A stretch of 64,000 nucleotides of DNA from contig JACZYG010000009.1 in assembly GCA_022571215.1 (NCBI GenBank), positions 18,663 through 82,662 on the forward strand, in the 5' to 3' direction. The stretch is from Fidelibacterota bacterium. Lineage in GTDB: Bacteria; Fidelibacterota; SORT01. A model generated the notes under the pieces. The model was not told the origin of the DNA and searched no databases. It saw nothing but the letters and a program-made list of their open reading frames with translations. The position numbers and the translations under genes are program-made. Every line of letters starts with the position of its first letter. The stretch's first letter is position 1. Below are positions 4,114 through 61,316 of this stretch, in pieces.

Positions 4114-4196
4114 TTAATCTTAATGACCAATTTTCATATAGTTGTTTAATATACAGAATTGAGCTGAGATATTCTACTTGATAGAAATACCGACTT

Positions 4197-4601
4197 TTAT
4201 TTCCTATTCGCTATCCTTAACCTGTTCTTTGCTCTTCTTACCGCTGCTACTGCTCTGTCCCGGTTCAGATTCTCCGGATGGTCGCTTAGCATTTTTTGAG
4301 CTCTTTCAAGCGCTGCCTGAGCTCTTTCTAAATCAATATCCTCCGGCAGCTCGGCAGTCTCAACTAATAAGAGAATTCGTTCCCGCTGAATTTCGCAATA
4401 ACCATCGCTTATCGCTAATAATTGCTGACGATCACCGCTCTCGATCTTGACTTCCCCCGGTTTCAGAGCGATAATAGCCGGAATGTGTCTCGCTAATATC
4501 CCGAAACTACCGTCTAACCCCGGCGCCCGGACATGACGCACATCATTAAAAGTTCTTGACGATGTTGGAGTTACTACTTCTACATTGAAGTTTTCAGCCA
4601 A
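4197..4601 (-). CDS. atpC: F1 ATP synthase epsilon subunit
   Basis: 134 aa; VEVVTPTSSRTFNDVRHVRAPGLDGSFGILARH is typical of epsilon; it is the last gene of the atp operon. Confidence 0.9.
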   Translation of the reverse strand: MAENFNVEVVTPTSSRTFNDVRHVRAPGLDGSFGILARHIPAIIALKPGEVKIESGDRQQLLAISDGYCEIQRERILLLVETAELPEDIDLERAQAALERAQKMLSDHPENLNRDRAVAAVRRAKNRLRIANRK

Positions 4602-4603
4602 TT

Positions 4604-6022
<1,419 letters not shown>

Positions 6023-6036
6023 TCATTATATAAAAA

Positions 6037-6951
6037 TCAATCTTTGAGAGCCTCCGCTCCACCTACAATATCAAGCAGGTCCCTCGTTATTGACGATTGT
6101 CTCGCTTTATTGTAAAACAACTGAAGTTCATCTATCATTTCATTGGCGGATTCGGTTGCGTTTTCCATAGCGGTCATCCTCGCGCCCTGTTCTGATGCCA
6201 TCGATTCAAGAAGTATCCGCCACATTTGAACAACTAAATACTTGGGGACTATGGCATTCACTACCTCCTCAACAGAGGGTTCGAAGAGCATATCGCCGAA
6301 TATTTCGGCACTTACTTCTTCTTTTTCTATTTCTTTCTCACTCTCTACTCCGGGCATAAAATCGTCTCGTGGATCGCCGCTTTTCAGCGGTAAAAATCGT
6401 TCAGCGATCAAATCCTGCTTCACTGCCGATTTGAATTCATGATATACAACATCAACCCTGTCAAGATCATGGGAGAGGTATTGAGTTTTTATCGTATCAG
6501 TTATATCAACCGCATGCTCAAATCGGAGCTTTTTGGAAAAATCGGTATATTCGGCGAGCAAATCGTAATCTCTCCTCTTGAAAAAGTCTCTCGCTTTCCT
6601 TCCTACAGCTATAACGCTCGTGTTATCCTTGCCGTACGAGTCGATGATACCGACAGCTCTATTCAAAATATTTGTATTGAATGAACCGCATAAACCTCTG
6701 TCCGAAGTAACCACAACCACGCAATATTTAGACGGTTCCCGAACGGCTAAAAGAGGATTTATATCAGTCTCAATTTTCGGCATACAATTGTTCAGGAGGT
6801 CTTTTATCTTGAACGCATATGGTCTCGCTTGAATTATTGCCTCCTGCGCGCGACGCAGCTTTACGGTTGCCACCATCTTCATGGCACGGGTAACCTGCTC
6901 GATCCCCCTAACCGACGACATCCTCGACTTTATTTCTTTTAGAGTTGCCAC
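6037..6951 (-). CDS. atpG: F1 ATP synthase gamma subunit
   Basis: 304 aa; N-terminal MATLKEIKSRMSSVRGIEQVTRAMKMVA and C-terminal ITRDLLDIVGGAEAL are the gamma signature. Confidence 0.93.
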   Translation of the reverse strand: MATLKEIKSRMSSVRGIEQVTRAMKMVATVKLRRAQEAIIQARPYAFKIKDLLNNCMPKIETDINPLLAVREPSKYCVVVVTSDRGLCGSFNTNILNRAVGIIDSYGKDNTSVIAVGRKARDFFKRRDYDLLAEYTDFSKKLRFEHAVDITDTIKTQYLSHDLDRVDVVYHEFKSAVKQDLIAERFLPLKSGDPRDDFMPGVESEKEIEKEEVSAEIFGDMLFEPSVEEVVNAIVPKYLVVQMWRILLESMASEQGARMTAMENATESANEMIDELQLFYNKARQSSITRDLLDIVGGAEALKD

Positions 6952-8468
6952 TAAGCCTCTTTCAACTTGAATGATTCAACGAAACTCTGAACAGCCTTTT
7001 TCAACTCCTCATTCAAATCATCGGACAAAACCTTTTCGGAGTCTATTGTTCTAAGTATTTTCGAATGTTCCTGCTCCATATAGTCATCGAACTCTACCGC
7101 GAATTGAACGATCTTCTCGGTTGGAATTTCATCTAAATGACCGTTTGTTCCTGCGTATATCAATGCAATTTGATTACCGAACTTCATCGGTTTAAATTGA
7201 TTCTGCTTCAGGATTTCGACTAACCGCTCCCCCCTCGTTAGCTGCGCAAGGGTAGCTTTGTCGAGGTCGGAACCGAACTTTGCGAATCCCGCTATTTCCC
7301 TGTATTGGGCAAGATCTATCTTTAGAGATCCCGCTACCTGTTTCATCGCTTTTATCTGGGCGTTCGAACCTACTCGCGATACCGAGATACCCACGTTGAT
7401 AGCCGGCCTTATACCCGAATGGAAAAGATCGGTTTCCAAAAATATTTGACCGTCCGTAATGGAAATCACGTTGGTAGGTATATAAGCTGAAACGTCGCTT
7501 AGCTGCGTCTCTATTATCGGAAGAGCCGTAAGGGAGCCGCCGCCGAGCTTATCGCTCAACTTTGCAGCTCTTTCAAGGAGTCTTGAGTGAAGATAGAATA
7601 CGTCTCCGGGATATGCTTCTCGACCCGGGGGACGTCTCAATAACAAAGAGACCTGTCTGTATGCCCATGCGTGCTTGGAGAGATCATCATATACTACAAG
7701 AGCGTGTTCTCCCTTATCTCTGAAATACTCTCCTATAGCCGCCCCCGCATACGGAGCGATGAACTGCATAGGCGCGGGATCGTTCGCATTTGCCGCGACT
7801 ACTACGGTATAATCCATGGCGCCGCGGTCTTCAAGCGTTTGGATAACTGTTGCAACCGTAGATGCCTTCTGTCCGATAGCGACATATATGCACTTCACGT
7901 CCCCGCCCTTTTGATTGATGATAGTATCGATCGCAATGGCGGTCTTCCCGGTTTGTCTGTCGCCGATGATCAACTCTCTTTGACCTCTGCCTATCGGGAT
8001 CATCGAGTCTATAGCCTTTATCCCTGTCGCCAAGGGTTCAGTGACCGGTTGACGGTCAATTACGCCGAGAGCTTTCTTTTCTATAGTGTAAGTTTCAGCG
8101 GCGTTTATCTTTCCCTTGCCGTCAAGCGGATGACCGATCGGATTTACTACCCTTCCTAACATCTCTTCCCCAACGCCTATCTCTACGATCCTTCCGGTTC
8201 TCTTAGCCGTATCGCCTTCTTTAATTCCCCTATCGTCGCCGAAGAGGATAATACCAACGTTATCCCTCTCAAGATTGAGCGCCATACCGAAAACACCGCC
8301 CGGAAACTCTATAAGTTCCGATGCCATTGCTTTTTCAAGCCCTACCACTCTGGCAATACCGTCCCCCACCATTATCACTTCGCCAACTTCTTCAACATCA
8401 ATTGTTACCTTGAAACCTTCTATTTGCTTTTTGAGCAGAGAAGTTATTTCGTCGGTTTTTATAGCCAT
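6951..8468 (-). CDS. atpA: F1 ATP synthase alpha subunit
   Basis: 505 aa; [18 protein letters not shown] Walker A; alpha-specific blocks. Confidence 0.97.
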
Positions 8469-9533: not shown

Positions 9534-9770
9534 TTATTCTCCTGTGAGAACTATGAGTAGTACGGTTACTATGATTGAAAAGAACGCAACGCCTTCGATA
9601 AGAGCGGCGGCTACGATCATAGCGCCTCTGATATCTGCGGCTGCTTCAGGCTGTCTTCCGATGCTCTCCATCGCACTGCTGCCGATCTTTCCAATTCCGA
9701 GGGCGGTTCCTATTGTGATCAATCCTGCGCCGATACCCGCTGCTAACCACGCTAACGCCTGTGATTCCAT
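9534..9770 (-). CDS. atpE: Fo ATP synthase subunit c (H+-type)
   Basis: 78 aa two-helix hairpin, GRQPE loop, carboxylate in IEGVAFF. No Q/S/T/Y Na+-coordination pattern. Confidence 0.9.
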   Translation of the reverse strand: MESQALAWLAAGIGAGLITIGTALGIGKIGSSAMESIGRQPEAAADIRGAMIVAAALIEGVAFFSIIVTVLLIVLTGE

Positions 9771-9803
9771 ATTATTTTCTCCTTGATTTATATTTTTTAA
9801 TTT

Positions 9804-10607
9804 TCAATGTTCCGGATGTAAACTCATTCCGACAAATATTGCCGAAAGATATGTAAACACGTATGTCTGAATCAAAACTATCAATATTTCAAGCACGCTC
9901 ATTGCCAAATTAGTTACTATGGTGAATGGAGCCAACAGCCAACTCTGCAAAATATAAATCAAGCCGAACAGAGTCAGTATGACTATATGCCCGGCTATCA
10001 TGTTCGCGAATAACCGGATGGCAAGCGCAAACGATTTTGTAAATAAGCCGAGAACTTCAGCCAAAACAATTATCGGCAGTATGAATCCCGGTACATCGGG
10101 TGGCACAAAAGATTTTAAGAATCCGCCGAATCCGTTTTTTCTTATGCCCCCAAAAATGATAGTCAGAAATGTCATGCCCGCAAGCATTCCCGTCACGCTC
10201 AAACTACCGGTTGGGTTAGCAAGAAATGGAATCATTCCGATAGCGTTATTCATAAGTACGAAGAAGAAGAAGGTGCAAAACAGAGGCATGAATCCCTTCC
10301 AGTCTTCCCGTAAATTCGGTTTTACTATATCATCACGAATGAATTGTACAATTGCTTCAAGTGCCTGCGCCAATCTCCCCCGGGGAACCAATCTAAGATT
10401 ATTTCTCACACTAAACGTAATCCCCAAAAGAATCGCCGAGGATATCCACATAAATATAGTAAGTTTGGTTATAGACAGGTCAAATCCGTATAGATTCAGC
10501 TCTATCCAAACTTGATCGCTTACTTCGTGAAAGATTTCCCCAATAACGTGAATCGGCTCAATGTCTTCTAAACTGTGGACCTTTTTTGATCCTTCAGATA
10601 ACAACAT
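9804..10607 (-). CDS. atpB: Fo ATP synthase subunit a
   Basis: 267 aa polytopic; conserved Arg-containing helix (LALAIRLFANMIAGH). Confidence 0.9.
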   Translation of the reverse strand: MLLSEGSKKVHSLEDIEPIHVIGEIFHEVSDQVWIELNLYGFDLSITKLTIFMWISSAILLGITFSVRNNLRLVPRGRLAQALEAIVQFIRDDIVKPNLREDWKGFMPLFCTFFFFVLMNNAIGMIPFLANPTGSLSVTGMLAGMTFLTIIFGGIRKNGFGGFLKSFVPPDVPGFILPIIVLAEVLGLFTKSFALAIRLFANMIAGHIVILTLFGLIYILQSWLLAPFTIVTNLAMSVLEILIVLIQTYVFTYLSAIFVGMSLHPEH

Positions 10608-10991
10608 CTATGTCTTCTTAATGTTCCTATTTTCAATCTTCATCATATACAGAACCTCAAAGATAAATAGGAAAAAATAAATTGCAACCAGAATTATCAA
10701 AAAATATCGAATATTTATATTTGCGTACTGATTTAAAATCAAATAAACGCCTAAAAAGATAGCGACTTTGCTTCCGAGACTGAATGAAACACCTTTTAAC
10801 ACCTGAGTATTGTCTCCCTGAGCTCCCCATTTTTTAAAAAAATGACTCGCCTCCATCATACTGAATGCCGTCAGCGCCGCGAATAGGAGAGTTTGTCCGT
10901 CCACTTCGATGAAATTAGAAAAAACGATGTAGATCAATAAAGCTGCAAAAACCGTTATGATCGATCCTAACAGATGAAAATTATTTTTCAA
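10608..10991 (-). CDS. atpI: AtpI-like small membrane protein (ATP synthase protein I)
   Basis: 127 aa, about 4 TM helices, immediately upstream of and abutting atpB. Confidence 0.45.
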   Translation of the reverse strand: MKNNFHLLGSIITVFAALLIYIVFSNFIEVDGQTLLFAALTAFSMMEASHFFKKWGAQGDNTQVLKGVSFSLGSKVAIFLGVYLILNQYANINIRYFLIILVAIYFFLFIFEVLYMMKIENRNIKKT

Positions 10992-11017
10992 GTGACGTCT
11001 CAGCCTTTATCGGGTTA

Positions 11018-11230
11018 TTATTTTTGACGATAAAGTTTTCTCATGAAATATACAAATGAAATAGAGGCAAAGAGTATACCGATGAGCAAAAATAGAGGCA
11101 AGGTTGAAAACTTCTTGTCTAACCAATAACCTCCGAGCATATAAAATGCGAACGAAACTGCCACTTGTAAACCGAATGAGTAATTCTGATTGTTGAACCT
11201 TGTTTCTTTTTTATCACCAGGTTTTGACAT
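11018..11230 (-). CDS. AtpZ/ATPase_gene1-family two-TM protein
   Basis: 70 aa with two TM helices. Its position at the head of the atp operon is typical of the putative F0F1-ATPase accessory subunit family. Confidence 0.5.
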   Translation of the reverse strand: MSKPGDKKETRFNNQNYSFGLQVAVSFAFYMLGGYWLDKKFSTLPLFLLIGILFASISFVYFMRKLYRQK

Positions 11231-11235
11231 ACCGG

Positions 11236-11649
11236 TCAGCTCGGATTGACATCGAGCTCATCTTCTGTTTTTTCGCTATCATCTTTCAATTCTTCATCTG
11301 CATTCTTGTCGAGCATGACGCATCTTCCTTCGAATATGGCGCCCTCTTCAATTTTAAGTCGAGCGGTTTTCAGATCACCCTTCAAACGCGAGTGCGCGCC
11401 GAGCACCGTGCTATCTATAACATCCAAATTTCCCTCGATAATTCCTCCGAGTTTAGCTGAATGTGCCTTAACATTTCCCTTGATTACTCCTGACCTGCCT
11501 ACTCTGATAGTCCGTTGGGTGGTAACATCTCCGGTGACAGTACCGTTAATGAGGATACTGTTTTCTCCAACTATATCCCCTTCGATGACTGTGCCTTCGC
11601 CAACCAAAGTTTCTATTCGGTCGATTGTCTTAGCGTTAAATCCCTTCAT
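11236..11649 (-). CDS. Bactofilin (polymer-forming cytoskeletal protein)
   Basis: 137 aa with a beta-helical repeat core (IEGDIVGENSILINGTVTGDVTT...VIKGNVKAHSAKLGGIIEGNLDV) and an acidic tail. Confidence 0.8.
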   Translation of the reverse strand: MKGFNAKTIDRIETLVGEGTVIEGDIVGENSILINGTVTGDVTTQRTIRVGRSGVIKGNVKAHSAKLGGIIEGNLDVIDSTVLGAHSRLKGDLKTARLKIEEGAIFEGRCVMLDKNADEELKDDSEKTEDELDVNPS

Positions 11650-12529: not shown

Positions 12530-13396
12530 TCAGCTGTCGAGTTGTCCTATAAGGGTGATCAGCCTTTCAAGGTCTTCATTCGAATAATATTCCACAACGA
12601 CCTCTCCGCCTGAGCCTTTTACTCTTATTCTAACCTTCGTCCCGAATTTCATCATAAGTTCACTTTCTATTGCTTTCAATTGGGGAGACTTCGCGGATGT
12701 AGCTTTCAAACGCATTGTTTTTGGAGTTTCTTTCAGGCCTCCCTTAATGATCTCTTCAACCTGTCGCACGCTGAGTCCGTCTTTGATTATCTTTCGATAC
12801 AACGCAAGCATTTTAGCGCTCTCTTTAATAGGGAGCAGCGCTCTTGCATGTCCTTGAGACAGTTCTCCCTTCCTGATAGACTCTCTGATTTCATCCGGCA
12901 ACCCGAGCAGGCGAAGGAAGTTTGCGATGGTCGAACGGTCTTTCCCGACTTTGTCCGCTATCTCTCCGTGCGTCAGTCCGTGATCTTCCACCAATTCCTG
13001 GAATGCCTGCGCTACATCCACGGGGTTCAGGTCTTCTCTCTGTATATTTTCTATTAGAGCGAGTTGAAGCAGGCTTCCATCGTTCTCGACCGACATCACA
13101 TATGCGGGAATCGTTCTCATGTTTATCAGCTTGACTGCCCGTAGCCTACGTTCTCCGGCTATCAACTCGAATTTGCCGTCTTTCCGCCTTACCGTAATAG
13201 GCTGCACAATACCGTTTTCATTTATTGACGCGGCAAGCTCTTCCAATGCTACAGGATCAAAATCATGGCGTGGCTGCCGGGGATTTGTTGAGATACTATC
13301 AACTAATAACTCCGCGACTTCCGCTTTTTCCCCCGACGGCTCATCAAATTCAGGAATGAGCGCCCTGATTCCCCTTCCAAGTGATTTAGCCGGCAT
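12530..13396 (-). CDS. parB: Chromosome partitioning protein ParB
   Basis: The ORF runs to 13417, but the likely start is the internal Met ([15 protein letters not shown]). ParB box GERRLRA and an HTH are present. Confidence 0.9.
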
Positions 13397-14165
13397 GTTC
13401 CAACATCTCCCGAACAAGATTCATATAATTTCCCGCGCCCGTTGAAACTGCATCGTATAGGATTATAGGTTTGCCGTAACTCGGCGCTTCTCCCAATTTT
13501 ACATTTCTGTTTATAACAGTCTCAAAGACTTTTTCCTTAAAATAATCCCTGATCTCTTCCGCCACCTGCCGACTCAGGTTCAAACGGCTATCGAACATCG
13601 TTATCAGAAAACCTTCAACTTCTAATGTTTTGTTCAGGTTCTTCTGAACTAATCGTATGGTATTCAGCAGCTGACTTAAACCCTCTAAAGCAAAATATTC
13701 ACATTGAACGGGCACGAGAACGGTATCAGCGGCGGTCAGACTGTTAAGCGTCAAAAGACCTAAAGAAGGTGGGCAGTCTATGAAAATGTACTCGTAACTT
13801 CCGTTCACGCTGCTGAGCGCCGTTTTGAGTATAGTCTCACGGGCAAGCGCGGGAACGAGTTCGATTTCCGCTCCAACCAATCTTGTTGATGAAGGAAGTA
13901 TATCGAGAAAGGGAAGATCGGATTTCCTTATCACGCTTTCTGCGTCCACACTGTTTATCATAACATCGTAAACCGATTTGTCACTATTTTCAAGTTCTAT
14001 TCCCAATCCGCTCGTAGCGTTTGCCTGCGGATCCATGTCAATTATAAGCGTCGGTATTTCCGTGACAGCCATGCACGCGGCAAGGTTCACGGCGGTAGTG
14101 GTCTTACCCACACCTCCTTTTTGATTCGCTATGACTATAACTTTCGTCAATTCTTTATTACCCAA
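13386..14165 (-). CDS. parA: Chromosome partitioning ATPase ParA/Soj
   Basis: 259 aa; deviant Walker [16 protein letters not shown]. Confidence 0.92.
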
Positions 14166-14279: not shown

Positions 14280-14460
14280 GCCGATTGAGGGACTAACGAA
14301 AATCCGGACTCGCAATGACAACTTCTCTCCCCTTGAGGGGAGTGTCCGTCAGTTGACGGACGAGGGGTGTGATCATTCCGTAAGGAGAAATCATAAATTA
14401 ATATCCGAATCACACCCTCCGTCACTTTGTGACACCTCCCTCAAGGGAGGAGGTTTTTTA
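14280..14460 (+). ncRNA. Candidate structured small RNA (unclassified)
   Basis: The region sits in a divergent promoter gap between parA and a dehydrogenase gene. It contains five perfect or near-perfect hairpins (ctcccc-ttga-ggggag; gtccgtc-agtt-gacggac; gagggtgtgat...atcacaccctc; gtcac-ttt-gtgac; cctccc-tcaa-gggagg) and ends in a stem plus T-run. There is no credible ORF. Confidence 0.2.
14435..14459 (+). terminator. Intrinsic terminator (GC hairpin plus U-run)
   Basis: cctccctcaagggagg followed by aggtttttta. Confidence 0.45.
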
Positions 14461-30947: not shown

Positions 30948-32225
30948 CTAATTCATCTCCATAACTTGATCCTTTTTCTCCCTCGCTCGAAGTCTCTTAA
31001 GAACAGCTTCCCTGAGACTGCTCTCAGAATCTAACATAAACTGACCCGAGGTAACGACTTGTTCGCCACCCTTCAACCCGCTAATGACCTCATAATAACC
31101 CCCCTCCCCTTGAGCACCAAGAGTAATTTCCCTTGGTTCGTATTTACCCTTTCCGACCTTAACAAATACTATTTCTCTCTCCCCTGAATGAATAACGCTT
31201 TCCCTTGGCACTACTACGGTTTTTTCCCGCTTAGCAGTTTTGATTAAAATATTGGCGTACATTCCCGGTTTAAGTTTCTCGTCGTAGTTATCGAATTCAA
31301 GCCTGACCTTTATCGTCCTTGTCTTTGAATCAAGAAATGGGTAAACATACGCTACGCTTCCCTTGAATACTTTTCCGGGTATGTAAGAGAGCGTCATCTC
31401 CGCTTCCAACCCATCCTCGAGCCAGGGCAATTCGTACTCGTAGATGTCGGCATAAACCCAAACTTTCATGAGGTCCGCAATAGCATAGAGATTCATACCT
31501 TCGGTTACATTCATTCCTTCGGTTGCCATCTTTTCTACAACTATTCCGTTGAATGGAGAGTAAATGGTCATCACCTTATTCACTTTGCCTGTTCGTTCAA
31601 GTTCCGCTATCTGCTCAGGAGTTACATCCCAGTTTGACAGACGTTCTCTTGTGGAACGCAGTAACGCCGCTGCGCCTGTGTTATTTGATTTCTTGTTAGC
31701 TAGAGCGGTCAAATATTCCTCTTGTGTCGATACCAATTCAGGACTGTATATATCAAGAAGCGGTTGACCTTTGTATACTTTTTGACCCGTATAATCGATA
31801 TATAATGATTCAATCCACCCCTTGACCTTAGTGTGAATATGAGTAAAACGAGTTTCGTCATAGTCAACCAATCCTAAAGTCCGTATTTCCTTGCCTAAGC
31901 TTCTGATTTCCACCGGAGTCGTGAGTATCCCCATATTCTGTACAACCGTAGGATCGATGACAATTACAGATTCATTGTCTCCCGTTCCATCTTCGTAAAC
32001 CGGTACGAGGTCCATTCCCATGGGAGATTTTCCCGGTTTATCACTGATATAGTTCGGATCCATTGGAGCGACCCAGTATTTAATTTTTCGCTCCTGTTCC
32101 TCATTTTGTGCGGTTACCGAATCAGCGCTTTCATGCGCGCCGTTCTGCATGTATAATCTGCTGAGACCATATCCTCCCAATAAAACAACCAAACCAATTA
32201 TCGTATATATCGTTTTCTTTGTCAT
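30948..32225 (-). CDS. Efflux membrane-fusion protein, CusB/CzcB-like (HlyD family)
   Basis: 425 aa; the N-terminal YWVAPMDPNYISDKPGKSPMGMDLVPV is a degenerate CusB metal-binding head; MFP beta-barrel and lipoyl-like core. Confidence 0.85.
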   Translation of the reverse strand: MTKKTIYTIIGLVVLLGGYGLSRLYMQNGAHESADSVTAQNEEQERKIKYWVAPMDPNYISDKPGKSPMGMDLVPVYEDGTGDNESVIVIDPTVVQNMGILTTPVEIRSLGKEIRTLGLVDYDETRFTHIHTKVKGWIESLYIDYTGQKVYKGQPLLDIYSPELVSTQEEYLTALANKKSNNTGAAALLRSTRERLSNWDVTPEQIAELERTGKVNKVMTIYSPFNGIVVEKMATEGMNVTEGMNLYAIADLMKVWVYADIYEYELPWLEDGLEAEMTLSYIPGKVFKGSVAYVYPFLDSKTRTIKVRLEFDNYDEKLKPGMYANILIKTAKREKTVVVPRESVIHSGEREIVFVKVGKGKYEPREITLGAQGEGGYYEVISGLKGGEQVVTSGQFMLDSESSLREAVLKRLRAREKKDQVMEMN

Positions 32226-32247
32226 TTTTCTACCTCTAAATCTTTCG

Positions 32248-32604
32248 TTATGCTTCTTTTTTAACCAATTTCATACCGCAGACCGGACAATCGCCGGGTC
32301 TTGCCTCTAACACATCTGGATGCATGGGACAATAGAACTTGCCGTCGCCATCATCTGTGTGCTCTCCCGCCTCCACAAATATCAAATCCATATTACACAA
32401 AGGGCAAAGTCCCGCTACACTTTCTCTAACGTCTTCATGCATCGGACAGCTGTAGTATCCTTCAGCCATTTCAGCAGCGTGAATATGTTTTTCACTTTCC
32501 TCTGTCAATCTGTTCTCATCAGTTACCGGTTGAAAGAACATTCCTATCGCCAATACCGTGCTAATTATCACTAATACTATTATTATCAATATTTTTCTTT
32601 CCAC
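32248..32604 (-). CDS. Periplasmic heavy-metal-binding domain protein (two HMBD/YHS-like repeats)
   Basis: 118 aa; TM/signal; YSCPMHEDVRESVAGLCPLCNMDL and YCPMHPDVLEARPGDCPVCGMKL. Confidence 0.65.
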   Translation of the reverse strand: MERKILIIIVLVIISTVLAIGMFFQPVTDENRLTEESEKHIHAAEMAEGYYSCPMHEDVRESVAGLCPLCNMDLIFVEAGEHTDDGDGKFYCPMHPDVLEARPGDCPVCGMKLVKKEA

Positions 32605-32616
32605 GATGTTTTCCTC

Positions 32617-33903
32617 TTAATTGAGCTTCATGCCCACTGTCGCTTCTAATCTTGCAATTGATTTTTCGTAATCCGATAAAATTCTAAAATAATTTATCTG
32701 ATGCTCGAACAGCGTAACCTGATTGTTCAATAAGGTAATGAAGTCAACCTTATCAACCTGATAACCGGAGAGCGCGGAGTTTAAACTCTGTCTCGCTTGC
32801 GGTAACAATCTCTCTGTATATAACACTATCAGCTCGTTACCCTTATAGATGTCGGAGTAATTTATCTCAATATCTCTCCTGACATTATTCAACGCGTTCT
32901 TATAGGATTCCTCGAAGATACGGACAGAAGCCTCAGATTCCTCGACCTTGCTCGATTGCCTGTTACCCGGTTTTATCGGCAGACTGAACCCGACGTTCAC
33001 CGATAAAAAATCCGCTCCGCCCATAGCCCCTCCGGTAAGCTCATCCCTTTGAGTGTAGGCGACTCCCACGGCTAAGTCAGGCAAGACAAGCTTACGGGAA
33101 TACTTCGCCATTTTCTTCTTACTCTTGATACGATGCTTGATCGCCCTTAATAGCGGTCTTGATTCTTCCACTAATTCCATCAGTTCGCTTTCCGATAAAA
33201 TATTTTCAGTTTTAGACAGCGTGCCGGGAATTATCAGTGGAGTTTGAGGATCTCTGTTCATCAGCGTATTTATTCGCGCAACTATCTTCTTCCTATCAAA
33301 ATCCAAATTTATTAACTTCTCTTCGAACTTTGATAAGGAAACTTGAGCCTTCAACACATCTTGTTGAATTCCTCTGCCCACTGAATATCTCGTTTCAGCT
33401 ATTTCAACAAAGCTTTTCAGAAGTCCAATATTTTCCTTATTGATCCTTATTGATTGATCCGTAAAATACAGGTTGAAGTAATCCTCCGAAACGCTGCGAA
33501 CCAACATTCCCTCCAGCTCTAACTTGTCTTCTTTCGCTGCCATCAGCTCGTATGAAGCGGCATCAGCTTTTACTCCAAGTTTTCCCGGAAAAGGTATTTT
33601 CTGCATGAGCGACAGCTGCTTCCCTGTCATCGGTTCCTGATCGAACACCCGTGACTCTATTGGAACGTTTATTATTCCGAACCTTAAAATAGGATCCATC
33701 CATGATCCTGCCTGTTTAAGTCTTTCATCCGCTCTTTTTACCTTCCAGTTAAATACATTGAGACCCGGATTGTACTTAATAACGGCTTCTATCGCTTCAT
33801 CAAGAGAGAGAGTTTCGGTGGAATCATTTGGCGCTCCGTTAACAGCTGCCGCCAACGTAAATCCCAATATCGTAGTTGTTATTATTCTTGTTGTTCGTTT
33901 CAA
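32617..33903 (-). CDS. TolC-family outer-membrane efflux protein (CusC/CzcC-like)
   Basis: 428 aa; signal peptide; two OEP repeats; leads the MFP operon. Confidence 0.85.
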   Translation of the reverse strand: MKRTTRIITTTILGFTLAAAVNGAPNDSTETLSLDEAIEAVIKYNPGLNVFNWKVKRADERLKQAGSWMDPILRFGIINVPIESRVFDQEPMTGKQLSLMQKIPFPGKLGVKADAASYELMAAKEDKLELEGMLVRSVSEDYFNLYFTDQSIRINKENIGLLKSFVEIAETRYSVGRGIQQDVLKAQVSLSKFEEKLINLDFDRKKIVARINTLMNRDPQTPLIIPGTLSKTENILSESELMELVEESRPLLRAIKHRIKSKKKMAKYSRKLVLPDLAVGVAYTQRDELTGGAMGGADFLSVNVGFSLPIKPGNRQSSKVEESEASVRIFEESYKNALNNVRRDIEINYSDIYKGNELIVLYTERLLPQARQSLNSALSGYQVDKVDFITLLNNQVTLFEHQINYFRILSDYEKSIARLEATVGMKLN

Positions 33904-34000
33904 TTATTAACTCCATTCATTATTAATTCCGTGATAAATAAGCCGAGGACGCTATGATACCGAAAAATTGGAATCAGGCTATTTGACGCGCGAATTTTTT

Positions 34001-34456
34001 TCAGGACAAAGAGACTGAATCAAGAAGATATATGGCTGTTTCTTTATATTTCAAATCTGTTGAAGAATAATAAAAAAAGGAGCCATATTGAGACGGTAGC
34101 GCTGATGTAAACATATGATATAAAGTATTTGAACTTAGATCCTTAGAAGCCGATGACCTTTTAAGCTGAGTCTTAACCGCAGGAAGCTCGACAACTATAT
34201 TAGCCGAAACTGGACAGACTCGGCTTAAACTCATTGAAACATCTATCAAATCGCTGTGGCAACAGCTCTTAGCTTCTTTTTGCGCGTGATTGTGCATCTT
34301 GCACATGTCACCGCATATCCCCGCAGAAAAAGCTGAACTGAACTGTATTAAAACGAGGAGAACAACAAGGATTATTCCCGTACTCACCCGCGTTATATTA
34401 TCTTTTTTTTGCATCATTTCCCCGCACGAATATACTGATTTTTTGAGGTCTTGCAA
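34001..34456 (-). CDS. Small Cys/His-rich membrane-anchored protein, hypothetical
   Basis: 151 aa; probable start at the internal MMQKK; hydrophobic anchor, then CGDMCKMHNHAQKEAKSCCH. Confidence 0.35.
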   Translation of the reverse strand: MQDLKKSVYSCGEMMQKKDNITRVSTGIILVVLLVLIQFSSAFSAGICGDMCKMHNHAQKEAKSCCHSDLIDVSMSLSRVCPVSANIVVELPAVKTQLKRSSASKDLSSNTLYHMFTSALPSQYGSFFYYSSTDLKYKETAIYLLDSVSLS

Positions 34457-34558: not shown

Positions 34559-34996
34559 ATGAAATTAAATATTTTAAATGCGACTCAAGACGATATTCCC
34601 GCTATAACTAAACTGCTAAAGAAAGCAAACCTTCCTCCCGATGACCTTGAAAGGTGGATAGATAATTTTTTCGTTTTGACCATTGAAGGAAAAATAGAAG
34701 GTTGTATAGGACTCGAACATTGGGAAAATACAGGTCTTCTCAGATCGTTTGCGGTGTCAGAGGATTACCGTTCAAAGGGGCATGGGCTTAAACTCTATGC
34801 TGAATTAATAGCTGCTGCAAAAGAGTTGAATTTGAATTCTATGCTGCTACTTGCTAAGGGAGCATCGGGTTTCTTCGAGAAGAACGGCTTTAAGTTCATA
34901 GATAGAAACGAAGCTCCGGAAAGTGTTAAGAACTCTATTCAATTTAAACTTGATGAATGCAGAAAATACGACGTCATGAAACTGGATATTAACTGA
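34559..34996 (+). CDS. GNAT-family N-acetyltransferase
   Basis: 145 aa; acetyl-CoA-binding motif (RSFAVSEDYRSKGHGLKLYAELI). Confidence 0.8.
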   Translation: MKLNILNATQDDIPAITKLLKKANLPPDDLERWIDNFFVLTIEGKIEGCIGLEHWENTGLLRSFAVSEDYRSKGHGLKLYAELIAAAKELNLNSMLLLAKGASGFFEKNGFKFIDRNEAPESVKNSIQFKLDECRKYDVMKLDIN

Positions 34997-35024
34997 TGCC
35001 CTGTATATGTGGCGGTCAGGGCTT

Positions 35025-35145
35025 GCTCTGAAGCCTGTATAACTGAAACCCTCTCTTACTCTTCAAAGTAATACATAAAATCCGTCAATGCGTTCAGCTC
35101 TTTCTTGGGCAGCCAGTCAAATTTCGGCATTATACTGTTCGGCTC
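35025..35145. repeat. Direct repeat, left copy (121 bp; remnant of the 3' end of the cytochrome b/c gene)
   Basis: About 93% identical to 36610..36730. On the minus strand it encodes EPNSIMPKFDWLPKKELNALTDFMYYFEE*, identical to the C-terminus of the 36641..38281 gene, with one synonymous difference. Confidence 0.85.
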
Positions 35146-35339
35146 TCAGAAGCGGATATTTATAAAAAAAATAAGCGATTTCGTTATCGACTGCGTTTTC
35201 TGTTAAGGCTATTTCACTAAATATCAAAAAATGATTACTTAAGAGTATCATTAATATTTTTAAAAGTGTTCGGTGAACATGAGATATAGGTTTATATTAT
35301 TTAAGAACTGGCTGAATCCTGAAATTAGGAGAATAAAAC

Positions 35340-36494
35340 ATGTATAGAGTATTTGTGCTTGGTGCTGGATTTTCACATCAGGCGGGATTGCCCCTTGGTA
35401 ACGAATTATTTGTTCGCATAATCCAAGAATCGAAAAAAGGTGTGCTATATGAAAACATACTTAAAGCAGACATAGAAGATTATATTGACTACATAAAGGC
35501 TACTTCTGGCAAACAAATTATAGAAAGTGAAATTGACTTAGAAAAATTCGCCTCATTTTTAGATATCCAACATCTACTATATCTAAGGGGATCAGATACT
35601 TGGTCATCTGAAGGCAATCGTTCTCAAATTGTAATTAGGAATCTCATAGGTTTAATACTAAACAATAAGATAGAAAATATGAATGATTCTGAAATGAGTT
35701 TATACAATAAATTTGCCTCAAAGCTCGATACGAAAGATTTTGTTATTACATTTAATTACGATACAATTTTAGAAAAGGCATTGGAGGCAATAAATAAGCC
35801 TTACAGACTTTTTCCTCAACGGTTTAGTGCCATTCATTCAACATGGGGTGAAGTTGACACAACCCATGAAGAAGTAGTGATATTGAAATTACACGGCTCA
35901 ATTGATTGGTTTGACATTACAGCATTCAATCGAGAAATAAGTCACATTCATTCAGAAAAAAATTATCAGAAACCTCATCATATAATATTTAGCAATCTGG
36001 ATAAATTTTACCCTGATAAAATAATTGATGAACCATATTTTCAAGATTCAAAATTACAGAATATATATAAGATAAAGAATTTGGATAGATATTACTCAAC
36101 GGCAACATTGGTTGAAGAGGTCCCATTAATTGTTTCACCTTCTTATGTTAAAATATCGTATTTAAATCCGCTTGAAGAATTATGGGGTGCGTTTCATGGA
36201 AGTGGAATGTTAAATTCTGGAATCGCTATAATAGGTTTTTCTATTCCTGAACATGATGAGTATATTAAGCAACCATTGTACTCTATGATCACCGATTTCC
36301 TAAACTCAGATACAAAGAAGATTTTTAGTCGGTTCGGAATAAAAAAATTGCCATTGAAATTTGTCGATTATAGAAAAGAAGAAAAAGATCAGAAAGAATA
36401 TCAAAAGATATTCCAATTTATAGACTGGGAAAAGACCGATCCGTTTTATGGTGGCTTCAATGATGAAGCAATTGATTATTTATTTGATAAATAA
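35340..36494 (+). CDS. Standalone SIR2_2-family protein (ThsA-like NADase fold); putative anti-phage defense effector
   Basis: 384 aa; VFVLGAGFSHQAGLPLGNEL (Rossmann GAGxS), ITFNYDTILEKAL (TNYD), ILKLHGSIDW (LHGS catalytic His), IAIIGFSIPEHDEYI (GxS..D). Strong RBS aggagaataaaacATG. The gene is about 32% GC in a ~45% GC context. Confidence 0.75.
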   Translation: MYRVFVLGAGFSHQAGLPLGNELFVRIIQESKKGVLYENILKADIEDYIDYIKATSGKQIIESEIDLEKFASFLDIQHLLYLRGSDTWSSEGNRSQIVIRNLIGLILNNKIENMNDSEMSLYNKFASKLDTKDFVITFNYDTILEKALEAINKPYRLFPQRFSAIHSTWGEVDTTHEEVVILKLHGSIDWFDITAFNREISHIHSEKNYQKPHHIIFSNLDKFYPDKIIDEPYFQDSKLQNIYKIKNLDRYYSTATLVEEVPLIVSPSYVKISYLNPLEELWGAFHGSGMLNSGIAIIGFSIPEHDEYIKQPLYSMITDFLNSDTKKIFSRFGIKKLPLKFVDYRKEEKDQKEYQKIFQFIDWEKTDPFYGGFNDEAIDYLFDK

Positions 36495-36609
36495 TAAAAT
36501 AAGAGGTCATCACATTTTAGAGGATGGGTCAGGATTAATTGATGCTCATGGCGAAGATGTCAATATAATTGATCTTCCTGACATTAAATTGTTAAGCGAG
36601 AGATTTAAA

Positions 36610-36730
36610 GCTCTGAAGCCTGTATGACTGAAACTCTGTATTACTCTTCAAAGTAATACATAAAATCCGTCAATGCGTTTAGCTCTTTCTTGGGCAGCCA
36701 GTCAAATTTCGGCATTATACTGTTCGGCTC
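36610..36730. repeat. Direct repeat, right copy (121 bp; functional 3' end of the cytochrome b/c gene plus 31 bp downstream)
   Basis: See the left copy; this copy is contiguous with the intact gene. Confidence 0.85.
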
Positions 36731-38281
36731 GTACTTTTGTGGATCCAAAAAGTGGTCATAGATGTAATCCCTGTCATGCTTAAGCGTGACTCCCGCAAGA
36801 TTCGGGCCGAACCCCGGTTCAGGATCGTCTATCTTATGACAAGCCCCGCATTTGTATGAAGAGAATAAATTCGCTGAATAAAGTATATCTTCCGTCACGG
36901 TCAATAGTTTATCCCTTTGTGGAGTGCTAAGCCGAAAATAGAATGATTTCAAATCTATAATTTGATCGAGCTTTAAACTTGCCTGCTCGACATTTCTTTC
37001 AGGCTGCGCAAGCGAGGGATTGGAAAAATGTTCTTTTAACCAAATAATGCTCTTTTCTCCGCTCGTCTGTAGAAGATCATTTGCTCCCTCACCGTGATTG
37101 CCGCCTATGTTGTGACAATTCATACATGATTCGTTTTGATATAGGTATCTTCCGGACAGCTCTGCGGGTTGTAGTCTGGATGGTTCTTCTTCCTCTGCCG
37201 TCTCAACGACAGCGGTCAATTTTCCTGAACTGTCGTCTGCCGCGCCCATAACGGTAAGACCGCCAACCGTCATCAAACCTATTGCCATTAAGGTTAGTGC
37301 TAATTTTCTGTCTTTAAGTTTTCTGGATCGGTTTCTATCATAAAATGGTAAGAGCAGCAATGCCAAAACTCCTATTGTGGGTATTATTATTGTTCCAATC
37401 AGTTCGAGATTTCCCGGGAATAACTTTTGAAGTTGATACATTGAAAGAAAATACCATTCCGGTTTTGGAACATAAGATGTATCGGTCGGGTCTGCCAATT
37501 TTTCAAGCGGCGCGCCGAACAACATGGCAAAACCGGAAAGTATCAGAAAAATCAGCAAGATGGCTACTCCGTCTTTGAAGAGCTGATCAGGCCAGAAGCG
37601 GGAATCGAACTTGACTTCCTCATCCGGAGATTTGAATGGTGGAGTGATTCCTTGTCTCTTCTGTAAAAACACATGTATAGCTACCGCTCCAATCGTAATA
37701 AGAGGGAGGACGATAACGTGCAGCGAATAAAAATGAGTGAGAGTCACGGAGCCGATGACATCTCCACCCTGCAGTATTTTTTGGATTATATCACCCAGGA
37801 ACGGAGCGGTTCCGGCAATATTGAGCGTTACGACGGTCGCCCAATATGCTTTTTGATCCCATGGAAGCAGATAACCCGTAAGCCCGAATGCCAAAACGAG
37901 ATTAAACAATATTACTCCGAAAACCCAGGTCAACTCACGGGGATATTTGTACGCGGAATATATAAATGTTCTCAGCAAGTGTATCACCGTAAAAACCACA
38001 AAAAAACTTGAACCCCAATGGTGCAGTCCCCGAATGAAACTCCCTAAAAACAGTTCATTCTGAACGTAACTAACGCTCAAATGCGCTGCTTCGGGTGTCG
38101 GCGCATAGAACATGGAAAGGAAAATACCGGTCGCAGCCTGTAATACGAAAAGAAAGAGAGAGATGCTTCCGAACACATGTGTCCAGCCTACGCCTTCGGG
38201 CAGAGGCTCGTCAAGAAGCTCTTTGAATCCCTCCCTGAGGTGAAGTCTTTCATCAAGCCAATTTATGACGGAATTGAACAC
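36641..38281 (-). CDS. Cytochrome b (bc-complex type) fused to a C-terminal diheme cytochrome c domain
   Basis: 546 aa; N-terminal cytochrome b/b6 helices with His ligands (RGLHHWGSSFFVV, THFYSLHVIVLP), a subunit-IV-like region, then two CxxCH motifs (CMNCH, CGACH). Confidence 0.85.
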   Translation of the reverse strand: MFNSVINWLDERLHLREGFKELLDEPLPEGVGWTHVFGSISLFLFVLQAATGIFLSMFYAPTPEAAHLSVSYVQNELFLGSFIRGLHHWGSSFFVVFTVIHLLRTFIYSAYKYPRELTWVFGVILFNLVLAFGLTGYLLPWDQKAYWATVVTLNIAGTAPFLGDIIQKILQGGDVIGSVTLTHFYSLHVIVLPLITIGAVAIHVFLQKRQGITPPFKSPDEEVKFDSRFWPDQLFKDGVAILLIFLILSGFAMLFGAPLEKLADPTDTSYVPKPEWYFLSMYQLQKLFPGNLELIGTIIIPTIGVLALLLLPFYDRNRSRKLKDRKLALTLMAIGLMTVGGLTVMGAADDSSGKLTAVVETAEEEEPSRLQPAELSGRYLYQNESCMNCHNIGGNHGEGANDLLQTSGEKSIIWLKEHFSNPSLAQPERNVEQASLKLDQIIDLKSFYFRLSTPQRDKLLTVTEDILYSANLFSSYKCGACHKIDDPEPGFGPNLAGVTLKHDRDYIYDHFLDPQKYEPNSIMPKFDWLPKKELNALTDFMYYFEE

Positions 38282-42208: not shown

Positions 42209-43306
42209 ATGGGATTTTCCTGTGGTATAGTAGGTCTTCCAAACGTCGGTAAATCAACAATATACCGCGCGCTGACCTCCGCGGACGTGACTATTGAACC
42301 ATACGCATTTTCAACCATAACTCCTAATATAGGCGTAGTTGATGTCCCCGATGTCCGCCTTGAGCATATTGCCCTGTCAATCAAACCCGACACCGTAATA
42401 AAAACGACTCTGAATTTTGTGGATGTCGCGGGATTAGTTGAAGGCGCATCATTGGGAGAAGGAATGGGCAATCAATTTTTAAGTCATATTAGAGATGTAG
42501 ATGCAATAGCTCATGTTATCAGATGCTTTCAGGATAAAAACATCCCGCACATTACGCCCGAGTTGAATCCCCTTAAAGATATAGAAGTAATTGAACTTGA
42601 GCTAATCTTAAAGGATCTGGATACAATAGATAAAAGAATCAATAAGATCCAAAAAGCCTCTAAATCAGGAAATAAAGATGCATTGCGGGATTTGGATATT
42701 CTTGAGAGAATCAGAATTGAACTTAATGAAGGAACCCCCGTTTCGAGCCTCACCCTTGAGGAACCGGAACGTGCTCTTGTAGATCAGCTTTATCTGCTTT
42801 CAGCGAAACCTCAATTTTTTGTGGCGAATATCGGAGAGGAACAACTCAAAGCGGAAAGCGACCCGTTACTCGAACAGGTATCTGAAGCTGCGATAGCACG
42901 TGGGATTCCATATATCTCGCTTTGCAGCAAGTTGGAATCAGAGATTTTAGACCTTCCCGCGGAAGAACGACAACAATTTTCTGAGGAGATGGGCATAGCC
43001 GAATCCGGCTTGGAAAATTTAGTCAGCGTCGGATATGAGCTGTTGGAATTGATAACATTTTTTACGACTCAATCCAATGAAGTCAAGGCATGGACGGTGA
43101 CCGATGGTACTTCTGCGGCCGAATCGGCAGGAAAAATTCATTCTGATATTCAATCAGGATTTATAAAAGCCGATATTATCAAATATGAAGACCTAATTGA
43201 CTTCCAATCCGAATCCGCGGTACGAGAGAAAGGGTTGGTCATGACGGTCGGGAAAGAGCATCTTATTGAAGACGGAGATATTATCCACTTTAAATTCAGG
43301 TCATGA
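42209..43306 (+). CDS. ychF: Redox-regulated ribosome-binding ATPase YchF (Obg family)
   Basis: 365 aa; GIVGLPNVGKST G1, DVAGLV G3, NxxE G4 (NIGE), C-terminal TGS domain. Confidence 0.93.
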   Translation: MGFSCGIVGLPNVGKSTIYRALTSADVTIEPYAFSTITPNIGVVDVPDVRLEHIALSIKPDTVIKTTLNFVDVAGLVEGASLGEGMGNQFLSHIRDVDAIAHVIRCFQDKNIPHITPELNPLKDIEVIELELILKDLDTIDKRINKIQKASKSGNKDALRDLDILERIRIELNEGTPVSSLTLEEPERALVDQLYLLSAKPQFFVANIGEEQLKAESDPLLEQVSEAAIARGIPYISLCSKLESEILDLPAEERQQFSEEMGIAESGLENLVSVGYELLELITFFTTQSNEVKAWTVTDGTSAAESAGKIHSDIQSGFIKADIIKYEDLIDFQSESAVREKGLVMTVGKEHLIEDGDIIHFKFRS

Positions 43307-60284: not shown

Positions 60285-61316
60285 GTGAAAATAGCATTAT
60301 TAGGATTACCCCAATCAGGAAAGCGAACCTTGTTCTCTCTTCTTACCGGCAGAGAAACGATAACGGGACAAGTTACAGAACATATAGAAGGAATAGCCCC
60401 CGTTAGAGATCCGCGTGTCGATAAAATTTCGGAAATTGAAAAACCTGAAAAAATCACATACGCGGAAACAGAAATAAAACTCTGTCCTGATATTGATCCC
60501 GGTAGCGGAAGCAACCTCTGGATTGAGCCGGCCAAATTAAGTGACCTCCTTTGTATTCTTATTAGAGACTTTTCTTCGGAGGAAGTTTATCATCCCTCCG
60601 GCTCTGTAAATTCTGAAAGAGACAGAAATAATATAGAAACGGAATTACTGATCGCAGACCTCTCCTTGATTGAAAAACGTCTTGAGAAAATTGCTAAAGA
60701 CAGGAAAAAATTAAAACCGACTCATACTCAACTCCTGGAAGAGAATACTATCAGAAAATTTCAGACAAAGCTCGAAGATAACCTTTTTCTTAATTCCCTT
60801 GAACTGGACGAGGAAGAATATGCTTCGGTAAACAGCTTAAACTTTCTCACTTTAAAACCGGTTCTTTGGTGTCTGAATGTAGATGAAGATAAGGTCGCTG
60901 AGGTCAATGATGATAATATTTTCAGGGTTTCCGCGCTGATAGAAAAAGAGATTGCCGCCATCAGCGAACCGACAGAACGTTCCGCGTTTCTCAATGATCT
61001 GGGATTAAGCGAATCCGGTGTCAACCGCTTAAATTCCATTGCTTATGATCTGTTAGGACTAATGTCATTTTACACTATGGGTGAAGATGAAACCCGGGCA
61101 TGGACCATCAGGAAAAACACTTTGGCTCCGGTTGCGGGAGGAAAGATTCATACCGATATTGAAAGAGGGTTTATCCGTGTGGAGGTAATTAAGTTCGACG
61201 ATCTACTCAATGCCGGGAGCGAAAAAGCCGTGAAGGCTTCAGGAAAAGCTCTGCTGAAGGGTAAAGATTATATCATTGAAGACGGTGATATATGTAATTT
61301 CCGGTTTAATGTTTGA
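60285..61316 (+). CDS. Divergent YchF/Obg-like GTPase paralog with an altered P-loop and a C-terminal TGS-like domain
   Basis: 343 aa; KIALLGLPQSGKRTLF (P-loop Lys followed by Arg instead of Ser/Thr); C-terminal MSFYTMGEDETRAWTIRKNTLAPVAGGKIHTDIERGFIRVEVIKFDDL parallels the YchF TGS region (FFTTQSNEVKAWTVTDGTSAAESAGKIHSDIQSGFIKADIIKYEDL). Confidence 0.65.
   Translation: MKIALLGLPQSGKRTLFSLLTGRETITGQVTEHIEGIAPVRDPRVDKISEIEKPEKITYAETEIKLCPDIDPGSGSNLWIEPAKLSDLLCILIRDFSSEEVYHPSGSVNSERDRNNIETELLIADLSLIEKRLEKIAKDRKKLKPTHTQLLEENTIRKFQTKLEDNLFLNSLELDEEEYASVNSLNFLTLKPVLWCLNVDEDKVAEVNDDNIFRVSALIEKEIAAISEPTERSAFLNDLGLSESGVNRLNSIAYDLLGLMSFYTMGEDETRAWTIRKNTLAPVAGGKIHTDIERGFIRVEVIKFDDLLNAGSEKAVKASGKALLKGKDYIIEDGDICNFRFNV

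Follow-up and report, generated by a model that had tools for sequence, protein, structure and literature searches.

How did a single gene come to lie between two copies of the 3' end of its neighbor in a bacterial chromosome? This question is raised by a stretch of 64,000 nucleotides from an uncultured marine Marinimicrobia (Neomarinimicrobiota) bacterium (GenBank assembly GCA_022571215.1, contig JACZYG010000009.1, positions 18,663 to 82,662), which we refer to as the window. At 35025-36730 of the window, an islet carrying one gene of the SIR2 family is enclosed by two imperfect direct repeats of 121 bp, both of which duplicate the 3' end of a cytochrome b/c fusion gene. A first-pass annotation made from the sequence alone regarded the repeats as attL/attR-like attachment sites of a site-specific integrative element that had brought a replacement 3' end for the target gene. 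In this study, we examined whether the islet is a genuine insertion, where the two repeat copies come from, what the insert carries, and which kind of event fits the locus best.

Results

Repeats and Empty Sites

The direct repeats lie at 35025-35145 and 36610-36730. A formal ungapped alignment of the two 121-nt copies confirmed that the cytochrome b/c 3' end is duplicated at these positions. The copies were identical at 116 of 121 positions (95.9%; BLAST E = 6e-53), so their identity is 96% and not about 93% as first estimated. These two were the only copies in the window. Each copy combines 31 bp of spacer with the final 90 bp of cytochrome b/c coding sequence (29 codons plus the stop), and on the minus strand both encode EPNSIMPKFDWLPKKELNALTDFMYYFEE followed by a stop. 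Four of the five mismatches (offsets 17, 26, 29, and 31) fall in the 31 bp past the stop, and the fifth (offset 71) is a synonymous CTG/CTA change in the coding part, in agreement with the earlier description. The longest perfect blocks between the copies are 50 and 39 bp.

The right copy holds the functional 3' end of the cytochrome b/c fusion gene together with 31 bp downstream. The gene itself, an open reading frame (ORF) of 546 aa at 36641-38281 on the minus strand, follows a Rieske gene and is the intact target. In the left copy, an in-frame stop precedes EPNSIMPKFDWLPKKELNALTDFMYYFEE. Therefore, the left copy is a displaced, non-functional pseudo-end of the cytochrome b/c gene. The repeat unit opens with GCTC (offsets 1-4) and closes with GCTC (offsets 118-121); the frequency of this tetranucleotide in the window is 0.0038 per position. 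The junction GCTCTCAGAAGC at 35142-35153 is similar to the repeat start GCTCTGAAGC.

A perfect 9-bp inverted repeat with a 6-bp spacer, TGTATTACT-CTTCAA-AGTAATACA, spans the cytochrome b/c stop codon at 36637-36660, and its version in the left copy is disrupted at offsets 29 and 31. Its folding energy was unexceptional compared with that of shuffled sequences. This inverted repeat could be an RNA-level or terminator element. At the same palindrome, the related locus L088 has GTTTTA…TAAAAC, which may be a compensatory change.

To ask whether the islet is an insertion, we examined 15 related loci whose cytochrome b/c proteins were 82% to about 100% identical to that of the window. The islet was missing from all 15. 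In L087, L088, L089-L094, L097, L098, and L002, the GNAT gene directly follows the cytochrome b/c gene, there is no SIR2 gene, and the gene end is present in one copy. The contig of L099 stops 73 bp past the stop, within the GNAT 3' end and after a 9-bp spacer, and the contigs of L082 and L100 stop at or just past the stop; these three showed no sign of the islet. The GNAT (ArsN2-like) acetyltransferase gene, at 34559-34996 on the plus strand, is the left chromosomal neighbor in the window and is convergent with the cytochrome b/c gene in all empty alleles. The islet thus sits at a convergent gene junction, and the target gene is left intact.

A precise empty site was provided by L098, a contig of a closely related metagenome-assembled genome (MAG; GCA_022564305.1). 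On the left side, L098 was collinear with the window at 99.0% over 6.1 kb, and on the right side there were about 0.4% mismatches across the cytochrome b/c gene. The two alignments of L098 with the window overlapped by exactly 121 bp. Therefore, the window equals L098 plus 1,585 bp, which is one repeat and the insert. In L093, the 59-bp spacer is identical and the 121-bp site occurs once, without interruption. The first 28 bp of this 59-bp spacer allele abut the left repeat in the window (34997-35024); they are found at the single sites of L093 and L098 and are missing from the alleles with a 9-bp spacer. The empty site with a single gene 3' end for which the first-pass annotation had suggested looking thus exists, and with one copy in relatives and two in the window, the duplication is neither a local tandem duplication nor a dispersed repeat. 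These results demonstrate that the islet is a real insertion, variable between strains in the core chromosome of a Marinimicrobia population.

The filled allele was also found outside the window. L001, a contig of 1,749 bp from another ENA assembly, matched window positions 34933-36681 at 99.8%, spanning the whole left junction and, at the right junction, the first 72 nt of the repeat. In sample SAMN16252666, the empty-allele contig L099 ends at the window coordinate where the filled contig L001 starts, and L001 reaches 55 nt past its outermost variant positions on each side. This pattern appears to be an assembly-graph bubble, with filled and empty alleles coexisting in that sample. Judging from accession numbers, a second MAG appears to hold the SIR2 and cytochrome b/c genes on one 66-kb contig.

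The spacer between the GNAT and cytochrome b/c genes had several forms among the relatives, of 9, 13, 40, 59, and 366 bp. The earlier suggestion of a recurrent integration hotspot was not borne out, as the relatives showed only these small spacer alleles. No alternative cargo was found at the site in the relatives and no related autonomous element in the 15 related loci or in 80 distant loci, and a metagenome scan for the cytochrome b/c C-terminus yielded only one short useful contig. Identity profiles around the site showed mosaic tracts among strains. The spacer at 34997-35055 was hypervariable in comparison with L087, L088, L089-L094, L097-L099, and L002. The 59-bp form corresponds to the 9-bp form plus 50 bp edged by TAACTGA repeats, and these extra 50 bp are either a small insertion or deletion or a miniature insertion.

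Alleles of the Repeat Copies

We then compared the two repeat copies with the single sites of relatives. Over the 121 bp, the L098 site differed from the left copy at one position (offset 17) and from the right copy at four (offsets 26, 29, 31, and 71). The single sites of L097 and L099, compared at offsets 18-121, had no difference from the right copy (104/104) and four from the left copy. In the 90 coding bp available for L100, there was no difference from the left copy and one from the right copy. These results demonstrate that the five mismatches are alleles segregating as ordinary single-copy sites. Since both copies match circulating alleles, the mismatches neither date the event nor reveal the crossover point, and neither copy can be called element-borne. 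The idea that the element had brought a replacement 3' end was accordingly given up, both copies being equal to single-copy chromosomal alleles. A crossover at offsets 18-25, which had been placed from the mismatches, was also abandoned because L098 shows that the 'CCC/C71' state is a natural allele. On the alleles compared, every crossover position within the 121 bp would be equally parsimonious.

The Insert and Its SIR2 Gene

The inserted DNA comprises 1,464 bp (35146-36609, plus strand). Its GC content was 0.29-0.35 (about 0.31), compared with 0.40-0.47 (about 0.43) in the flanks. Because of this dip across the insert, we consider it foreign DNA by composition. The insert starts with a non-coding left spacer of 105 bp (spacer 'a', 35146-35250), which had no similarity among the fetched sequences except L001. 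This is followed by the SIR2 module (35251-36518, plus strand), consisting of 89 bp upstream, the ORF, and 24 bp downstream. The ORF at 35340-36494 (+) encodes a SIR2_2-domain protein of 384 aa and is the sole real ORF between the repeats. As first annotated, no recombinase, excisionase, or transposase lies between them.

The insert ends with a right spacer of 91 bp (36519-36609), which had been described as a possible gene remnant lying in a start-less plus-strand frame. The frame, ending in FKALKPV and a stop, does exist, but it is listed as an ATG-started ORF of 59 aa (36448-36627), inside which the SIR2 gene ends. A phmmer search with its 42-aa peptide against 1.84 billion representative proteins returned only the peptide itself, Pfam gave no match, and the spacer had no likeness to the corresponding segment of L084, the contig with the second SIR2 module described below. 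The gene-remnant reading was rejected on these grounds, and the right spacer is most likely non-coding.

The SIR2 protein matched Pfam SIR2_2 (E = 2e-9), had weak matches to the SIR2 models of PADLOC (best E = 8e-10), and had no match in NCBIfam. In an alignment of 42 members of the SIR2 family, the GAGFS motif, N139, D141, and H185 were invariant. The AlphaFold2 model of the protein had a mean predicted local distance difference test score (pLDDT) of 91 and a predicted template modeling score (pTM) of 0.90. When this model was compared with the PDB using Foldseek, the best match was 8sub_B, the SIR2 subunit of the anti-phage SIR2-HerA system (E = 6e-10, TM-score 0.55). KomC, ThsA, DSR2, and SPARSA came next, with E values down to 4e-10 among the matches. 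No partner gene of the characterized SIR2 systems (SIR2-HerA, Thoeris, DSR, and pAgo-SIR2) adjoins the islet SIR2 gene. The 90% cluster of the protein contained six variants, all of full length at 384 aa. Between the SIR2 genes of the window and L084, the ratio of nonsynonymous to synonymous substitution rates (dN/dS) was 0.17 with a dS of 0.48, which indicates a gene kept under purifying selection.

A homologue with 42% identity is encoded on the Thalassospira xiamenensis plasmid NZ_CP004389 (L101), where its neighbors include an Abi-family gene and a RES-Xre toxin-antitoxin pair. In the region 4026-8339 of this plasmid, the homologue belongs to a run of small ORFs that adjoins these neighbors, and a conserved motif of about 25 nt, ATTCCAAATAAGGGAC, with at least eight occurrences, stands ahead of each ORF. 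This run of ORFs looks like a cassette-style defense array.

A Second Locus of the SIR2 Module

A SIR2 protein 85% identical to that of the islet was found on L084, a 597-kb Marinimicrobia contig, where it follows an aromatic amino-acid operon at a locus unrelated to that of the window. Nucleotide homology covered window positions 35251-36518 and L084 positions 9909-11179 at 87% and stopped abruptly at both edges. The spacers outside the module had no similarity between the two loci. Because the homology is confined to this segment, ends abruptly, and is surrounded by dissimilar spacers, the SIR2 gene and its upstream region can be described as a module that has landed in two different variable sites.

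Copies of a weak, degenerate direct repeat lie on either side of the L084 module (9753-9808 and 11511-11567). The local alignment score of this repeat, 39, was reached by 4 of 500 shuffles in a search carried out only after the pattern in the window had been seen, and the repeat rests mostly on one 17-mer (16/17 matches). The right copy opens with GCTCT where the homology to the relative L095 starts, and the final codons of a convergent gene fall within it. L095 ends too early for the insertion in L084 to be delimited on its left side.

Search for a Recombinase or Vehicle

The window was scanned with Pfam for recombinases among ORFs of at least 140 aa, including 40 further ORFs, and the region from 21.9 to 29.5 kb was judged by synteny with the annotation of L089. 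No integrase, transposase, or resolvase was found among the scanned ORFs of the 64-kb window, nor in the islet. Outside the islet, the scanned ORFs were housekeeping genes only (ATP synthase, ParAB, SecDF, PurA, LpxB/K, a TonB system, and others). The genes parAB lie at 12530-14165, which suggests that the window is origin-proximal core chromosome rather than a terminus region.

A distant blastn search of phage and plasmid collections with the islet gave no match, and a search of the phage collection and IMG/VR with the SIR2 protein was likewise negative. A profile scan of IMG/VR returned one full-length SIR2 relative with 36% identity, too few for a pattern of flanking repeats to be seen. Because the collections are empty of similar sequence and the sole plasmid homologue is 42% identical, a phage, plasmid, or virus origin of the islet was rejected.

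Known kinds of target site were also considered. There were no tRNA or tmRNA genes in the window, Rfam gave no match, the 121-nt repeats, unlike the attC site of an integron gene cassette, folded no better than shuffles (z = +1.1 and -0.8), and inspection of the repeat ends revealed no GTTRRRY or RYYYAAC motif. An attC, dif, RNA, or tRNA target was rejected given the unexceptional folding and the lack of Rfam, tRNA, and tmRNA matches. A transposon with a target-site duplication was rejected as well: there was no transposase, the insert did not end in terminal inverted repeats, and the duplication has 121 bp, not a short fixed length. The site-specific integrative element of the first-pass annotation received no support, since the scanned ORFs contain no recombinase, no parental element or other cargo was seen at the site, and the module lies at another target in L084.

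Neighboring Regions

The region left of the GNAT gene is also strain-variable (window 30948-34456; L089 3117-3500; L097 8902-11782). The window and L098 have a Cus-like metal-efflux set there, consisting of an outer-membrane factor, an HMBD protein, and a CusB-like protein. An ArsR-type regulator takes the place of this set in L089, L090, and L092, and L097 has an extra multicopper oxidase and two further ORFs left of GNAT.

Two genes with a YchF-type GTPase C-terminal domain are located at 42209-43306 and 60285-61316, 17 kb apart. An intergenic 47-bp GC-rich palindromic sequence (…CACCTCCCTCAAGGGAGGAGG…) at 14408-14454 was 94% identical to positions 2663-2709 of L002, from Marinimicrobia MT.SAG.2, where it lies in the spacer at a different locus. 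This sequence probably represents a dispersed intergenic repeat of this lineage.

Discussion

The reading that fits the locus best is a homology-driven insertion-duplication of the Campbell type, followed by homologous spread and loss; we hold it tentatively, at a probability of roughly 40%. The cassette would already have been joined to a copy of the 121-bp segment on circular or circularized DNA. One reciprocal crossover between the chromosome and this DNA, within the 121 bp, would then have produced an insert bracketed by the duplication. We lean to host homologous recombination as the agent over a dedicated integrase, because the two copies correspond to alleles of the host, neither an integrase nor other cargo was found at the site, and the locus is mosaic among strains. 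A homology-driven rather than an integrase-driven event is further supported by the presence of the module at a different target in L084 and by the absence of matches in the phage and plasmid collections and IMG/VR. Afterwards, the islet may have been passed among co-occurring strains and lost from them via homologous exchange in the flanks and repeats, and we propose that the two copies carry different population alleles because of this later exchange.

Campbell-type insertion-duplication is known from laboratory insertion-duplication mutagenesis. The islet has the same topology, a target fragment, heterologous DNA, and again the target fragment, with the gene intact on one side. It differs in being a natural event, in having only 121 bp of homology, and in that the circular donor is hypothetical.

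Several observations weigh against this reading. It needs an earlier, unexplained event in which the cassette became joined to a copy of the 121-bp segment. With 121 bp at 96% identity and longest perfect blocks of 50 and 39 bp, the homology would be a short substrate for RecA. The GCTC at both ends of the repeat unit hints at a microhomology-driven event in one step. Finally, a duplicated gene 3' end is the classic footprint of an integrase, and an integrase could lie outside the window.

This footprint is the starting point of a second explanation, in which the islet is a decayed or non-autonomous element of the cis-mobilizable element (CIME) type. An integrase-bearing island would have entered the 3' end of the cytochrome b/c gene, and internal deletions would have spared the SIR2 gene together with attL and attR, on which a related integrase could still act in trans. 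CIMEs have lost their integration and transfer genes and have kept attL and attR (PMC5704250). The repeats that cover the gene 3' end with the gene left intact, their sharp boundaries, the precise empty site, and the foreign GC content of the cargo agree with such an origin, as does the perfect 9-bp inverted repeat with a 6-bp spacer inside the repeat, which resembles a recombinase core. However, this palindrome belongs to the coding sequence of every empty allele, and it folds unexceptionally. Both 'att' copies are chromosomal population alleles, so there is no distinguishable attP, and the scanned ORFs of the window contain no integrase. No element was present at the site in any of the 15 related loci, nor was a related autonomous element found in the 80 distant loci. 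The supposed gene remnant has no homologue, and the same module occupies another target in L084. We consider a CIME-type origin plausible, if on the whole unlikely.

CIMEs and the 'additive' flexible islands would be the closest known kinds. Like the CIMEs described previously (PMC5704250), the islet is a short segment without integration or transfer genes, with repeats that take in the 3' end of a target left intact. In contrast to them, no parental integrative and conjugative element (ICE) or integrative and mobilizable element (IME) and no cognate integrase were found, the islet has 1.5 kb and a single gene, and its repeats are chromosomal alleles; moreover, the host is a Marinimicrobia bacterium, whereas those CIMEs are streptococcal elements. 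With the islands that tyrosine recombinases integrate at the 3' ends of tRNA and protein genes, and with the 'additive' flexible islands marked by gene 3'-end repeats (PMC10872708), it shares target 3'-end repeats that mark the insertion, strain-variable content, an aquatic uncultured lineage, and an atypical composition of the cargo. It differs from these islands in that there is no integrase and no tRNA, the insertion is single and not an array, and the repeat has 121 bp as opposed to about 20 bp. Among the features that define an integrase island, flanking repeats, an intact target, and an empty attB were found, whereas an internal integrase and a distinguishable attP were not. Since the integrase that defines the CIMEs and the additive islands is missing here, the islet cannot be assigned to either kind. 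Integrative mobile elements exploiting Xer (IMEX) integrate at dif via the host XerC/D and, like the islet, have no recombinase of their own and are flanked by direct repeats. Unlike theirs, the repeat of the islet is a gene 3' end and not a 28-bp dif site, and parAB lies at 12.5-14.2 kb of the window.

A third explanation is that the insertion itself made the duplication in one step. The cassette would have been copied or ligated between points 117-121 bp apart, either because replication or repair switched template twice at GCTC microhomologies, or by fill-in of a long staggered break. The copies would have been identical at first, and one later gene-conversion tract from another allele would have made the differences. 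A single conversion by a known allele could explain four of the five mismatches, as these are confined to one tract (offsets 26-71). The GCTC at the start and end of the repeat unit and the similarity of the left junction to the repeat start speak for this route. At L084, so do the weak degenerate repeat, with its score reached by 4 of 500 shuffles, and the right copy that starts with GCTCT at the edge of the L095 homology. However, the L084 repeat depends mostly on its single 17-mer and was sought after the pattern in the window had been seen, and the spacers flanking the module are non-homologous between the two loci. In addition, we know of no bacterial mechanism that makes target duplications of 58-121 bp, which counts against this explanation. 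A one-step event seems to us rather unlikely.

An extension of this idea would make the SIR2 module an undescribed defense cassette without a recombinase, which enters at the 3' ends of convergent genes beside a GCTCT motif and whose insertion itself makes long target duplications that vary in length, with 121 bp in the window and a since-decayed copy of about 57 bp at L084. We regard such a cassette as improbable.

An assembly artefact, in which a metagenome assembly would have fused different strain variants at a short repeat, was also considered. In its favor, the locus is a strain-variable branch point at which the contigs L099, L100, and L001 break. However, the junctions are present in the long contig of the window and in the independent assembly L001, the second MAG appears to carry the SIR2 and cytochrome b/c genes on its one 66-kb contig, and the longest perfect stretch between the copies is 50 bp. 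An artefact is thus very hard to credit. The idea that no insertion took place, and that the repeat is a local tandem duplication or a dispersed repeat, has nothing in its favor beyond the existence of two copies and can be dismissed as refuted by the single-copy empty sites, with copies 1,464 bp apart around unrelated low-GC DNA, only two copies in the window, and one copy in every relative.

Returning to the homology-driven insertion-duplication, its cargo is probably a single-gene defense that acts by abortive infection through NAD+ depletion, as predicted from the fold and the conserved residues. Compared with the defense SIR2 NADases (the SIR2 subunits of SIR2-HerA/Nezha, ThsA, DSR2, Kom, and SPARSA), the predicted fold is alike and the GxG motif and the N, D, and H residues are conserved; the identity is about 14%, and no HerA, TIR, Argonaute, or other partner is adjacent. 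This part of the reading has points against it as well: the defense function is a prediction, and with weak PADLOC matches and no partner gene, assignment to a characterized SIR2 system fails.

The case is small and concerns a single locus. It provides a natural example of a single defense-type gene entering and leaving the core chromosome in a deep-sea lineage that is abundant and uncultured; the same set of metagenomes contains the filled form, a precise empty form, and several versions of the spacer. It also suggests a caution of method: mismatches between flanking repeats need not mark an att copy borne by an element, since here they are population alleles. If the mechanism is independent of an integrase, whether homology-driven or self-duplicating, the locus would bear on how defense genes move between hotspots without recognizable mobile-element machinery.

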